Part shown: piece by piece, positions 4,395 through 7,270 of the stretch
How positions within the stretch are numbered: position 1 is the stretch's first letter
How the letters are laid out: every line of letters starts with the position of its first letter
Assembly: GCA_964354495.1 (NCBI GenBank)
Contig: CAYHAA010000023.1
Span: 1-27,689, forward strand
DNA from: an uncultured archaeon
GTDB taxonomy: Archaea; Asgardarchaeota; Thorarchaeia; Thorarchaeales; Thorarchaeaceae
DNA: 27,689 nucleotides
Direction of reading: 5' to 3'
Translations under genes and position numbers: made by a program
The notes under the pieces: model-generated
Database searches by the model: none
Seen by the model: the letters and a program-made list of their open reading frames with translations, nothing else
What the model was told of the DNA's origin: nothing

Positions 4395-5594
4395 ATGAGT
4401 CTGATCTATGATAGAGATACTTGCACAGGCTGTATGCTCTGCCCGAAGGCCTGTAACTTCGGAGCAATCATGAAAGACGGTGACAAGGTCAAGTTCGATC
4501 TCGATAAGTGTGTCCTCTGTGGATCGTGTGAAGAGGTCTGCCCCGTGGACGCCATCAAGATTGAGCGGAAGAAGGTCGACCCTAGCCAGATTGCTGAGTA
4601 CAAGAATGTCTGGGTCTTCTGTGAGACCGTCGAGGGACGATTGAGAAGTGTTGCTCTTGAGCTCGTCACGAAAGGCAGAGAGCTTGCCGACAAGCTGGGT
4701 GAGAGACTTGTCGCAGTGATCATCGGCAGCGGTATCACAGATCATGCCCAGAACCTTGTTCATCATGGTGCGGATGAAGTACTTGTAGTAGATGCAAAGA
4801 TATTCGCAGACTACACGACTGATGCATATGCTATTGCTATGACCTCACTCATTGCGTCCAGAAAGCCTGCTGTCGTTCTCTACGGCGCAACCAGCAATGG
4901 TCGTGACCTTGCACCCCGTATTGCGGCTCGGCTCGGGTTGGGTCTCACGGCTGACTGTACTGGTCTTGAGATTGATGAAAAGCGTCAACTCATTCAGACT
5001 CGACCTGCCTTTGGTGGAAACATCATGGCCGAGATCATCACTCCCTACACTCGCCCGCAGATGGCAACGGTCCGTCCGAACGTCTTCAAACCCAAAGACC
5101 CTGACACGTCACGCAAGGGAAAGATCGAGAAGGTGAACATGCAGGTCAGCCCCGTCCAAGTTCGAACGCGAGTCCTCGAGAAGGTGAGCGAGGTCGTTGA
5201 GGGTATGAAGCCTGTCGAAGAGGCTGATATCATCGTCTGCAGTGGGAGAGGTATCAAGGACCCGGCTAACCTTGAGCTGCCCAGGCAGCTCGCAAAACTG
5301 CTTGATGCTGCTATTGGAGGTTCGCGTCCCATCGTTGACATGGGCTGGCTTCCTCCAACGCAGCAGGTCGGGCAGTCAGGGAGAACGGTCTGTCCGAAGC
5401 TCTATTTTGCGTTGGGAATATCTGGAGCCATTCAACATCAGATCGGAATGGCCAGCAGTTCGATCATAGTAGCCATCAACAAGGACCCAGAAGCTCCGAT
5501 TTTCAGCATAGCTGACTTTGGAATTGTCGGGGATATCTTCACAGTCTTACCCGAAGTGATTGCAGAGGTAAAACGAGTACTAGACTCGAGATAG
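4395..5594 (+). CDS. etfA: Electron transfer flavoprotein alpha subunit with N-terminal 2x[4Fe-4S] ferredoxin domain
   Basis: CTGCMLCPKAC and CVLCGSCEEVCP cluster motifs, then GRDLAPRIAARL, GLTADCT, RPAFGGN, GRG, GSRP, QVGQSGRTV.P.LY.A.GISGAIQH, INKD.EAPIF. Confidence 0.97.
   Translation: MSLIYDRDTCTGCMLCPKACNFGAIMKDGDKVKFDLDKCVLCGSCEEVCPVDAIKIERKKVDPSQIAEYKNVWVFCETVEGRLRSVALELVTKGRELADKLGERLVAVIIGSGITDHAQNLVHHGADEVLVVDAKIFADYTTDAYAIAMTSLIASRKPAVVLYGATSNGRDLAPRIAARLGLGLTADCTGLEIDEKRQLIQTRPAFGGNIMAEIITPYTRPQMATVRPNVFKPKDPDTSRKGKIEKVNMQVSPVQVRTRVLEKVSEVVEGMKPVEEADIIVCSGRGIKDPANLELPRQLAKLLDAAIGGSRPIVDMGWLPPTQQVGQSGRTVCPKLYFALGISGAIQHQIGMASSSIIVAINKDPEAPIFSIADFGIVGDIFTVLPEVIAEVKRVLDSR
5562..5594 (+). 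repeat. Direct repeat copy 1 (last 33 bp of etfA)
   Basis: GCAGAGGTAAAACGAGTACTAGACTCGAGATAG (AEVKRVLDSR*). Matches 7206-7238 at 28/33 nt. Confidence 0.9.
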
Positions 5595-5603
5595 GCTGTT
5601 GAA

Positions 5604-5628
5604 TTGCCCGGCTCTTCGGAACGGGCAA
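5604..5628 (+). terminator. Hairpin terminator downstream of etfA
   Basis: TTGCCCG-N11-CGGGCAA 7-bp stem followed by CTCATCTCTTTC. Confidence 0.6.
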
Positions 5629-5658
5629 ACTCATCTCTTTCACTGGAAGTGAGTTGAC

Positions 5659-7071
5659 CTACCACGGCTCCTGAAGTAGTTCTATCCAGAAATACATGAA
5701 TCCCGGCAGTGTTTCATTCTCTGCTGCCACAATCTTCATCACGAAAGTATACGAGCCAGAATCAAATCCGAGATCCCAGTAACCGCCCATACCGCCCCAG
5801 TCACCTTCCGTTCGATTGTCGTAATTACATAATGATCTTCGACCAGTTTCATTCAACGACTGAAAGTCGGATGAGGACATGCTTAGCATTGAGTAGTAGT
5901 AGCTCAGTTCTTCGGGTGCGGTACCCCAGTCTTCAAGCTCGCAGGTGGATTTTAGAATATTCCGTTGTCCATATTGTGCAGGCTGGACATTGCAGGGAAA
6001 AATGTACCAGTCGCCAAGAGTAATTTGTTCCCCTCCCACCGGACTACGATAGAAGATGACAGTAGTCTGATCAAGAACAAAGGTCGAATATGATGCTGTT
6101 CCAAATGCAGCTATTATCAGAAAGACCGTGATGAAGCCCGCGAGCGCGGCTCTGCGGATTCTTAACTTGTGTCTTAGTTTCGTAGGAACTCCCTGACGCT
6201 CTAACTCGGTCTCCCAGACTGCAGTACTGCTTCGTATTTCTGTTATCTTCGGCCAGTAGGACATGTTAGATTTGAAAACCCTGAAACTGGCAAGAAGACC
6301 AGCGAATGAAACGAATCCAAGTATTGCGATGGATAACAGAATCGAAGACAGCGATGCCTCGAATCCAAAATAGGATGCGATGGTCGTATCATGGGCAGGG
6401 GCGTAGCCAGAAATAGAACCTGCAAAGATTCTTGCAAGATTCGATGGACTGAGCGTTGCTATACCACGTGTCACAGATCCCCAAAGGGCCAAAGAATTCG
6501 ATCCTACCATGATCGCTAGTCCTATTGTCACTGCGCATCCCATAGTCGTGGATATGATGATGTCATCAGTGACTACAACAAAGAGCACACCAATTGATGC
6601 CAGTAACATGGAAACGACAGAAGTGGCTATCAGCGCCGGAGGAAGATAAATGAAAAAACCCGTGCCTCTTGGTTGATAGAATGAAGTTCCCACTAGCAGA
6701 GGTTCTAAGAACAACGCAATTGTGACCATCACGCTGAATACTAGTGTAAGAGCATAGACTTCGATTAGACATTGAAGAAACACCTTACTCCCGCTCTTCC
6801 CAGATTTCTGCAGTGCTAAAATGCGCTCTTTTGCAGTCCATGTTCCAAACACAATGCTAGGAATCATGAACACTGGCAGACCAATGATCAGCACATATGC
6901 AATAACATTCATCGTGTTAACAAGAACTGCAAATTCATCGTGGTAACCGACATCTGGGCGCATTGAATAGCAGGTGAGAATGACAATAATCGATACAACA
7001 CTCCAGATCACCAACCATTTTTTGGCGATGAAGAATCGACTAGCTCTGGTCGCGTCCTTTTTGTCCTCCAC
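5659..7071 (-). CDS. Multi-pass membrane protein, ABC-2 permease-like N-terminal region plus C-terminal extracellular domain
   Basis: 470 aa, GTG start. About 6-7 hydrophobic helices with ABC-2-like spacing (ER.LALQ.SG.S...VF; LSP.NL re-entrant segment), a further TM at about residues 310-330, then a soluble Cys/Trp/Gly-containing domain. No cognate ATPase nearby. Confidence 0.75.
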   Translation of the reverse strand: MEDKKDATRASRFFIAKKWLVIWSVVSIIVILTCYSMRPDVGYHDEFAVLVNTMNVIAYVLIIGLPVFMIPSIVFGTWTAKERILALQKSGKSGSKVFLQCLIEVYALTLVFSVMVTIALFLEPLLVGTSFYQPRGTGFFIYLPPALIATSVVSMLLASIGVLFVVVTDDIIISTTMGCAVTIGLAIMVGSNSLALWGSVTRGIATLSPSNLARIFAGSISGYAPAHDTTIASYFGFEASLSSILLSIAILGFVSFAGLLASFRVFKSNMSYWPKITEIRSSTAVWETELERQGVPTKLRHKLRIRRAALAGFITVFLIIAAFGTASYSTFVLDQTTVIFYRSPVGGEQITLGDWYIFPCNVQPAQYGQRNILKSTCELEDWGTAPEELSYYYSMLSMSSSDFQSLNETGRRSLCNYDNRTEGDWGGMGGYWDLGFDSGSYTFVMKIVAAENETLPGFMYFWIELLQEPW

Positions 7072-7205
7072 GATGATTCACTCCCTTGGAACACATATCT
7101 GAGCTAAACCGATGGTTCCACATCGCATAAGAAAGCGCAGAATACTATGTGATGCCACTAGTAGGTAGGACGTTTTTTCATTTATGGTCATCGGTAGAGA
7201 AAACT

Positions 7206-7238
7206 GCTGAGGTCAAACGAGTATTAGATTCAAGATAG
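7206..7238 (+). repeat. Direct repeat copy 2: orphan etfA 3'-end remnant
   Basis: GCTGAGGTCAAACGAGTATTAGATTCAAGATAG encodes the identical AEVKRVLDSR*. All 5 mismatches to etfA are synonymous. Confidence 0.9.
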
Positions 7239-7270
7239 AGGCCACACCTCTATCTTCCCCACTTCTTTTT
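7232..7270 (+). terminator. Strong hairpin terminator with no intact upstream plus-strand gene (likely the original etfA terminator)
   Basis: AAGATAGAGG-CCACA-CCTCTATCTT perfect 10-bp stem plus CCCCACTTCTTTTT. Overlaps the stop codon of the etfA remnant. Confidence 0.7.

Follow-up and report, generated by a model that had tools for sequence, protein, structure and literature searches.

Recurrent duplication of the etfA 3′ end, a candidate insertion site for gene cassettes in a Thorarchaeota family

At the 3′ end of etfA, this Thorarchaeota family appears, on balance, to have a site of recurrent insertion, at which DNA is taken in as units of an etfA tail plus cargo. By tail we mean up to ~160 nt of the etfA end plus the terminator. 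In the genome under study (G000; other G-numbers denote compared genomes), the window that was analyzed, a stretch of 27,689 nt, carries the etfA end twice, on either side of a 470-aa cargo gene (p470). The duplication recurs in relatives, where the copies have a common boundary, the tails of live genes have been replaced, and cassettes are both shared and exchanged between species; no recombinase lies at the locus. Rather than a one-off route, the p470 locus exemplifies a hot spot that recurs across the family. A limited literature search found no description of arrays of this kind in Asgard archaea.

The orphan etfA end and the p470 cassette

The last 33 nt of etfA (5562-5594) and an orphan block downstream (7206-7238) each encode AEVKRVLDSR followed by a stop codon, with 28 of 33 nt matching and all five mismatches silent. 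A degenerate pattern for the peptide and stop matched these two sites only in the window, and it matched nothing in 100 shuffles. The perfect hairpin that follows (stem 7232-7241/7247-7256, 5-nt loop, T-run 7266-7270) was likewise as a previous examination of the letters by themselves (the sequence-only reading) had described it, and so was the presence of one cargo gene between the copies. An nhmmer profile built from the 3′-terminal 165 nt of 18 etfA genes matched the orphan at 7197-7240 (E 0.04, ~300 kb searched); thus, the homology extends several decayed codons 5′ of the 33-bp block. No Rfam family was found within the window. The coordinates of all features are given in Table 1.

Table 1 Features of the etfA region in the window
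Feature	Position	Strand	Basis and remarks
etfB (electron transfer flavoprotein beta)	3586..4392	+	Pfam ETF, E 3e-53
etfA with N-terminal 2x[4Fe-4S] ferredoxin domain	4395..5594	+	Pfam ETF, ETF_alpha, Fer4
Live etfA tail, the unit duplicated in arrays	5430..5594	+	nhmmer profile, boundary stacks, tblastn starts
Hairpin between convergent etfA and p470	5604..5628		Fold; identical sequence after etfA in G017 and G006; cassette-side
p470 cargo gene, 470 aa	5659..7071	-	Sole cargo ORF between the two tail copies
p470 upstream (promoter) region	7072..7196		Homologous to G017 and G006 as far as the fragment junction (alignment)
Orphan etfA tail remnant	7197..7240 (strict identity block 7206-7238)	+	5′-eroded copy; orthologous to the ~80-nt G012 orphan
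Native-type etfA terminator	7232..7270	+	10-bp hairpin containing the stop codon, then T-run; fold
p194, first gene past the orphan	7371..7955	+	In G012, the Kelch cassette and another tail remnant sit before p194

The hairpin at 7232-7270 has the design of the terminators that many relatives carry behind an intact etfA (AGATAG-AGG..CCTCTATCTT; the stem includes the stop codon). This design occurs 3′ of intact etfA in G014, G018, G001, G008, G011, and G010 and also after many fragments. The orphan itself has orthologues in three relatives: in G012 a longer tail copy, also decayed, and in G017 and G006 fragments of 126 nt. The 33-bp block is not an att site but the remnant of a ~160-nt unit, a worn older etfA end that is eroded at its 5′ side. 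The event is neither recent nor private to G000, since G012 has an orthologous orphan and both G017 and G006 share the cassette.

Three of the five silent differences are derived in the live gene of G000, the orphan keeping the state of G012, G017, and G006, and the other two are specific to the orphan. The live tail of G000 shows no replacement since the split from G012, and the donor copy is not readable from 33 nt. etfA is single-copy in G000, the other matches in the genome being to the ferredoxin domain only, which rules out an origin of the orphan from a second paralogue.

p470 encodes a polytopic membrane protein without a Pfam family and with a weak ABC-2-permease-like lead. Orthologues that are 67% identical occupy the equivalent position in G017 and G006, where the 126-nt etfA fragment follows, and the 470-aa gene is an old cassette common to three species. 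Remoter homologues elsewhere in the genus (41-52% identity; G024, G011, and G016) have no adjoining etfA fragment. The closest relative, G012, has a different gene in place of p470. The order etfA-p470-fragment is repeated in the assemblies of two other species (G017 and G006), and independent metagenome contigs span both etfA to p470 and p470 to the orphan; therefore, the locus is not an assembly artefact, and the alternative of a chimeric assembly falls away. The insert had been described as low in GC. Its 43-48% is that of the rest of the window (44-50%), and it is etfAB that is the outlier (51-57%).

Tail copies, boundary, and cassette traffic in relatives

One to four co-oriented tail copies were found downstream of intact etfA in 10 of ~20 loci of the same genus. 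The genomes with such extra 3′-anchored tails are G000, G012, G017, G006, G004, G010, G003, G001, G015, and G020, and further copies lie on other contigs of G010, G015, G024, and G019. Tail arrays were also found in at least four other genera. Tail copies in genomes of other genera (G049, G059, G075, G088, and G089) start at EtfA residues 347-356, as they do in the genus, and tblastn starts across genera fall at residues 347-358. Between the copies lies cargo of one or two genes of diverse kinds, and a typical unit measures 0.6-2 kb and holds one ordinary gene. Both an empty site and different cargo had been proposed as checks, and relatives supplied them: G024, G011, and G023 have no cassette at the site, and the cargo varies in G012 and other genomes.

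Most long copies begin between -163 and -150 relative to the stop codon, with a scatter of ~10 nt; the fragments of G017 and G006 start at -127. Live genes show an identity break at about -157, where the identity between sister species falls from ~85-92% to 69-75%. On the live tail of G000, the point at which copies usually start and sister identity usually breaks (~150-163 nt before the stop) corresponds to ~5432-5445. Tails and fragments were compared by pairwise identity, 165 nt being too short for a tree. The etfA body and the last 165 nt differed strongly in identity between G015 and G024 (91.6% vs. 75.2%), G004 and G042 (87.3% vs. 69.1%), and G009 and G023 (85.0% vs. 71.5%), whereas control pairs showed no such drop (G000-G012, 91.2% vs. 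88.5%; G001-G018, 87.5% vs. 83.6%).

The live tails of G015 and G004 are foreign from about -157 onward, and the displaced fragments match the live tails of sister species. The fragment in G015 shares 90.5% identity with the live tail in the sister species G024, terminator included (~97% over -147..-50, counted from the alignment), and only 74% with the live tail of G015 itself; for the G004 fragment, the nearest live tail is that of the sister G010. Compared with their nearest live tails, fragments differ mainly by silent changes (pN/pS 0.04-0.3, pS up to 0.8). The argument that silent-only divergence marks two lineages, which fails for the 33-mer given the changes derived in the live gene of G000, thus holds for the long fragments of relatives. 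Evidence from G017, G006, G015, and G004 also bears out the central proposal of the sequence-only reading, that DNA bringing a donor etfA end and cargo inserted into the 3′ portion of etfA and displaced the older end and its terminator. Exchange points outside -150 to -163 were found at -75, at -127, and near the hairpin. No shared arm motif was obvious upstream of etfA fragments, and no common motif was seen by eye at the fragment junctions of etfA and other target genes.

Individual cassettes recur in different species. A Kelch unit, closed by its own short tail remnant, is common to G012 and contig C115 of G010, and in G012 it has kept the foreign tail remnant on its 3′ side. Hemerythrin cargo is found in G001, G003, and G019, and BPL_N cargo in G003, G006, and G009. 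The p470 cassettes of G006 and G017 are 92.7% identical, and their etfA bodies 78.6%; this exchange has its left crossover within the tail, near -75, and its right crossover at the fragment. Metagenome contigs from relatives at 90-95% show intermediate arrays. On one of them, p470 and the orphan precede a terminator that in G012 stands behind live etfA; another (X3) has a diverged patch of the same length at -168..-86. No sequencing run screened for the G000 strain exceeded a word share of 0.16.

Recombinases, mechanism, and alternatives

The statement that no integrase is present was upheld at the locus and for tyrosine recombinases in G000. No recombinase was found among ~45 island ORFs scanned, and no integrase or hallmark gene in more than 25 tail-bounded units from more than 15 genomes of five genera. 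PF00589 (tyrosine recombinase) was undetected in 20 of 28 genus genomes, G000 included, and never occurred on an etfA contig; the tyrosine recombinases of the eight remaining genomes lie on other contigs, without adjoining C-terminal gene fragments. A 375-aa recombinase with a weak PF00589 match, present in four clade-B genomes only and flanked by the same two genes in three of them, was ruled out as the array enzyme because it does not track the etfA arrays. G000 has only two IS607-type serine recombinases with TnpB, distant from the arrays, and one decayed tyrosine-recombinase remnant. Viral and other mobile-element contigs yielded 22 pattern matches to the etfA tail, none of which was confirmed, and no tail beside an integrase. 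The genus genomes and viral contigs, which are limited collections, contained no related autonomous element with an etfA-tail att site and an integrase.

Under the explanation that we favor, an incoming DNA unit would combine one etfA tail copy (the last ~160 nt and the terminator) with cargo of one or a few genes, and its joining to the chromosome would take place at a fixed position, ~157 nt upstream of the stop codon. etfA would thereby be rebuilt with the incoming tail, and the resident tail and terminator would be moved downstream. Repeated rounds would stack cassettes, and homologous recombination and gene conversion among tail copies would produce swaps, deletions, and erosion. p470 would be one such cassette, acquired before the split of G000, G012, G017, and G006, and 7197-7240 would be the displaced tail, eroded and still joined to its native terminator. 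We infer that the incoming unit was a circle and that the founding joins were made by a site-specific recombinase acting in trans, supplied by rare mobile elements or belonging to an unrecognised family. Counting against this explanation, no capable recombinase was found, the boundaries scatter by ~10 nt, and there is no obvious arm motif. Some crossovers clearly fall inside the repeat or at its 3′ end, so that plain homologous recombination on an old duplication could account for some of the traffic or even all of it.

Similar architecture was found in G000 behind SHMT, NrdD, and a DUF35-type gene. It is conceivable, although we hold it to be doubtful, that Thorarchaeota possess a gene-capture system of a new kind, for which the 3′ ends of essential or conserved genes (etfA, SHMT, and NrdD) serve as landing pads. 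Single-gene cassettes carrying the end of the target gene may then be inserted, stacked, and exchanged between species, and the agent may be a recombinase unlike the tyrosine and serine integrases or a specialised machinery of homologous recombination and DNA uptake.

A serious rival, which we nevertheless regard as rather unlikely, needs no dedicated enzyme. It supposes one ancestral duplication of the etfA tail in the family, after which ordinary homologous recombination moved cargo and tails through pop-out circles, Campbell-type re-insertion, double crossovers with the DNA of relatives, and gene conversion to the edge of homology; the common boundary at -157 would then be inherited and not newly made. 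The crossovers inside the repeat (G006/G017 and the X3 contig patch) speak for such a history, as do the undetected integrases in most genomes and the lack of conserved arm sequences. The array of G012 equals an X8-type array minus p470, which is expected of a deletion between live tail and fragment, and in G010 and the Kelch unit of G012 it is the fragment, not the live copy, that is foreign. However, the tail copies are mutually only 70-88% identical over ~160 nt, and we regard such sequences as poor substrates for homologous recombination; the exchanges in G015 and G004 map no more than ~10 nt from the edge of homology, where the tail is least conserved, and not to its well-conserved middle. 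Moreover, the arrays of SHMT, NrdD, and the DUF35-type gene would each require a separate founding event, and the terminal-only orphans of G000 are mostly C-terminal, co-oriented, and downstream (five vs. one that is N-terminal and upstream; small counts).

We consider it improbable that the arrays are purely fossil, left by classical integrative elements (provirus, plasmid, or ICE-like) that had their own integrases and have all decayed, with no cassette traffic continuing. Their attL/attR-like geometry and tandem accretion are textbook features of such elements, tycheposons in Prochlorococcus show similar outward pushing and scattered partial target copies (bioRxiv 10.1101/2020.12.28.424599), and tyrosine recombinases are sporadic in the genus and often on small contigs. 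Yet the tail-bounded units are uniformly free of integrases and hallmark genes, are mostly short and of one ordinary gene, and are traded between species as single cassettes. Finally, a chance likeness, or a conserved small ORF or terminator element unconnected with etfA history, is highly improbable: an ATG-started 28-codon frame (7152-7238) does span the orphan and the hairpin could persist as a terminator, but the shuffles, the lack of an Rfam family, and the relatives' longer tail copies refute such an origin, and in G012 the part of the frame 5′ of the orphan is not conserved.

Relation to known systems and significance

The etfA arrays resemble islands and integrative elements at gene 3′ ends in that a 3′ end brought by the element keeps the target intact, the displaced native end is found at the far side, units are stacked at what may be a fixed target position, and partial target copies occur. 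As in attL/attR pairs, target-derived direct repeats flank the insert and the gene is intact. They differ from these elements in having no integrase in or near any unit, in carrying mostly single ordinary genes in units of 0.6-2 kb, in the length and divergence of the duplicated segment (~160 nt of coding sequence), and in their Asgard archaeon host.

CIMEs are integrase-less, att-flanked derivatives of ICEs and IMEs in streptococci, for which the parent ICE or IME family and its integrase are known. Like them, etfA units hold cargo between two att-like gene-end copies without a recombination module, and CIME-like mobilisation, in trans or in cis through an incoming element, is conceivable; unlike them, etfA units have no known parent element.

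Prochlorococcus tycheposon islands share with the etfA arrays cargo modules beside a conserved gene, scattered partial target copies, newcomers that push older units outward, and remnants without hallmark genes. Tycheposons have tyrosine recombinases and often replication genes, and their targets are seven tRNA genes and the tmRNA gene (bioRxiv 10.1101/2020.12.28.424599). The etfA target is a protein gene instead, and neither a tyrosine or large serine recombinase with a replication module nor any element with hallmark genes was found there.

Integrons and CALINs (integrase-less clusters of attC cassettes) are also similar, with promoter-poor one-gene cassettes, a hairpin-containing closing repeat, and cassettes shuffled among genomes. 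Unlike integrons, the etfA arrays have no IntI-type recombinase beside an attI, the platform being the gene itself, and no attC closes each cassette; each repeat duplicates the coding end of etfA together with a terminator hairpin that has the stop codon in its stem.

The genomes of Asgard archaea are large and rich in genes, and little is known of how accessory genes enter them; the etfA locus offers a concrete recurrent route. At what may be one fixed point in a housekeeping protein gene, in at least five genera, one-gene packets appear to have been taken in, stacked, and swapped, with the gene rebuilt each time. As a side effect, the last ~50 codons of EtfA are exchanged horizontally between species, which matters for phylogenies and for the detection of recombination. 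If the enzyme proves new, the arrays would represent a novel class of systems for site-specific gene insertion; if none is needed, they would be a clear natural example of repeat-driven cassette exchange. Should a capture system of a new kind be at work, it would be a functional integron built on a different principle. The arrays are ready markers for the flexible genome in Thorarchaeota MAGs.

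The duplicated etfA end in the window

The sequence-only reading had taken a duplicate of the etfA end as the mark of a donor end and cargo inserted into the gene. The duplicate is real. The orphan copy (an extra tail copy without an intact gene) encodes the same peptide as the live etfA end, matches it at 28 of 33 nt, with all five differences being silent, and runs into a hairpin and T-run. A degenerate pattern for AEVKRVLDSR plus stop matched twice in the window, at these two places, and never in 100 shuffles. Intact etfA occurs once in this genome (G000); at its N-terminus (window 4395-4600), a ferredoxin domain with two clusters is fused to the ETF domains. 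No Pfam family was found for p470, the cargo ORF between the two ends; it resembles a polytopic membrane protein and gives a weak lead toward ABC-2 permeases. The GC contrast noted earlier did not hold: the GC content of the insert equals the window background, and etfAB is the GC-rich outlier.

Coordinates of features in the window and in related contigs
Feature	Position	Strand	Remarks
etfA	4395-5594	+	C-terminal peptide AEVKRVLDSR*
Orphan etfA end	7206-7238		peptide AEVKRVLDSR* and stop
Hairpin of orphan	7232-7241 / 7247-7256		perfect 10-bp stem, then T-run
Hairpin common to convergent etfA and p470	5604-5628		between the two copies
p470 ORF	5659-7071	-	470 aa; its upstream region also within the insert
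rps19	1743-2153	-	
Two ORFs 3′ of rps19	3-785 and 782-1705		no Pfam family
G000 orphan fragment, SHMT	C3:121862-121987		C-terminal
G000 orphan fragment, OTCase-like	C7:113271-113402		C-terminal
G000 orphan fragments, NrdD	C1:231886-231957 and 233682-233726		C-terminal
G000 orphan fragments, DUF35/ChsH2-like	C10:2015-22735		C-terminal
375-aa tyrosine recombinase	G024:C163, G015:C30, G007:C180, G023:C101		weak PF00589
IS607-type elements of G000	C22:1314-1916; C24:10745-11347		each MerR-HTH and resolvase TnpA, 200 aa

Silent-only divergence had been proposed as a sign of selection in two lineages. For the 33-mer this argument failed: three of the five differences were derived silent changes in the live gene of G000, sites at which the orphan keeps the state of the live tails in relatives G012, G017, and G006. 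Only two of the five are orphan-specific, so little can be read from the pattern in the window copy. Applied to the long fragments of relatives, the same argument is strong, judging from coding comparisons with the nearest live tail (pN/pS 0.04-0.3, pS up to 0.8); most of these fragments were closer to the live tail of another species than to that of their own genome.

etfA loci and a recurrent boundary in relatives

Up to 14 kb around etfA was compared in approximately 20 same-genus genomes. Between etfA and the conserved distal block p320-p254-p614 lies a hypervariable stretch of 1.1 kb (G024) to approximately 9 kb. At 10 loci, one to three additional copies of the etfA 3′-end lie downstream of the intact gene, all co-oriented and all with the stop codon and terminator as their anchor, and further tail copies were found on other contigs of G010, G015, G024, and G019. 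One 23-kb contig (G010:C115; L058, L059) has four tail copies and no intact etfA; the 12 kb beyond its first copy is syntenic with DNA 3′ of the live etfA in sister species G042, so the native downstream region seems to have been separated from etfA in G010.

Both empty sites and alternative cargo, which were looked for in relatives, were found. In G024, G011, and G023, etfA and its terminator adjoin the distal flank. In the nearest relative, G012 (etfA 96% identical in amino acids), a different gene, ORF174, takes the place of p470, and a Kelch cassette, with a further short tail remnant at its end, lies ahead of the downstream gene p194. The orthologous orphan in G012 is approximately 80 nt long and has the orphan-specific GCT and GTC codons in common with the window copy. 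In G017 and G006, a p470 orthologue (67% identical) lies in the same place and is followed by a 126-nt etfA fragment, the upstream flank of which is homologous to window 7072-7196; the window orphan is thus a deletion-shortened, decayed version of that fragment. The 33-mer is very probably the relic of an insertion at a hot spot, a reading that is well supported.

Most long copies start at codons for (Q)HLAGM, 150-163 nt ahead of the stop and just past the conserved GISGAIQH block. The same start (residues 347-356) was found for fragments from further genera of this family (G049, G059, G075, G088, G089, and others). When sister species were assigned from a tree of the etfA body (the gene upstream of the tail), live etfA identity between sisters fell abruptly at about -157 (counted from the stop): 91.6% in the body vs. 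75.2% in the last 165 nt for G015-G024, 87.3 vs. 69.1% for G004-G042, 85.7 vs. 72.1% for G010-G042, and 85.0 vs. 71.5% for G009-G023. Control pairs showed no such drop (G000-G012, 91.2 vs. 88.5%; G001-G018, 87.5 vs. 83.6%). Compared with the live tail and terminator of its sister G024, the displaced fragment of G015 reached 90.5% identity (approximately 97% over -147 to -50, by hand count from the alignment), and its 5′ edge falls within a few nucleotides of the position at which the live gene becomes foreign. The proposal that an incoming end with cargo replaces the resident end and pushes it downstream is borne out in G015, where the fragment matches the sister's live tail and the live tail is foreign.

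Cassette exchange and arrays behind other genes

Distant species had cargo units in common, placed at different positions in their arrays: a Kelch unit in G012 and G010:C115 (78% over 1.29 kb), with a short tail remnant and hairpin of its own at the end; hemerythrin in G001, G003, and G019; a BPL_N-like cargo in G003, G006, and G009; and an ORF161 family in five genomes. Between G006 (L041) and G017 (L040), the p470 cassettes were 92.7% identical from etfA -75 to the fragment end (etfA bodies, 78.6%), which points to a recent exchange with crossovers inside the two tail repeats.

Logan contigs of four metagenome runs represented relatives at 90-95% identity. One bridged the etfA tail into p470. 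Another ran from the 5′ end of p470 through the orphan into the terminator and flank that follow live etfA in G012; G012 therefore looks like that array minus p470, apparently lost by recombination between live tail and fragment. Others showed a G012-type remnant ahead of p194 with a switch inside the hairpin, 37 nt of orphan type embedded in a full tail with the native hairpin, and a diverged patch of unchanged length at etfA -168 to -86.

Similar fragments (approximately 70-170 nt, co-oriented with the intact genes) lie downstream of four other genes in G000; in the DUF35/ChsH2-like array, about five copies spread over 28 kb enclose a heliorhodopsin gene. On G015:C188 (L060) there are four co-oriented rps19-end fragments (S19 C-terminus, aa ~106-136) and one etfA tail fragment. 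Together with the two ORFs 3′ of the window rps19, these suggest that rps19 may be another landing pad. A literature search of limited coverage found no description of such gene-end arrays in Asgard archaea; the nearest published picture is that of tycheposon islands, with tandem accretion at tRNA genes (bioRxiv 10.1101/2020.12.28.424599).

Recombinases and mechanism

As first noted, the locus has no integrase. No recombinase was found among approximately 45 island ORFs scanned from five genera, whose products include hemerythrin, Kelch, MFS, aldo-keto reductase, Rce1-like, DinB, beta-propeller and beta-helix surface proteins, and unknowns. PF00589, recovered by the search in 14 of 14 control genomes, went undetected in 20 of 28 genus genomes (G000, G012, G017, G006, G004, G010, G003, and G001 among them) and never occurred on an etfA contig; on integrase-bearing contigs of the genus, no C-terminal gene fragments adjoined the integrase. 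A divergent 375-aa tyrosine recombinase was restricted to four clade-B genomes (86-97% identical), lying between the same two genes in three (G024, G015, and G023); its G000 counterpart is a remnant with two stop codons (C18:4449-4718). The two serine recombinases of G000 are IS607-type with TnpB; for the C24 element, a TnpB-like (Cas12f1-like TNB) gene lies approximately 1 kb further on, past an intervening ORF. No viral contig encoded an etfA tail.

The mechanism is less certain than the hot-spot origin. That plain homologous recombination accounts for everything is a serious rival, consistent with crossovers inside repeats, deletions between copies, arrays in which the foreign tail is the fragment rather than the live copy, and the lack of integrases and of a common arm motif. 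However, the boundary is the same across many copies and genera, exchange takes place right where homology ends, in the tail's least conserved stretch, and similar arrays stand behind many unrelated genes, all of which argue for a site-specific step. We favor a two-layer model, in which rare site-specific joins would found the arrays and homologous recombination would remodel them afterwards.
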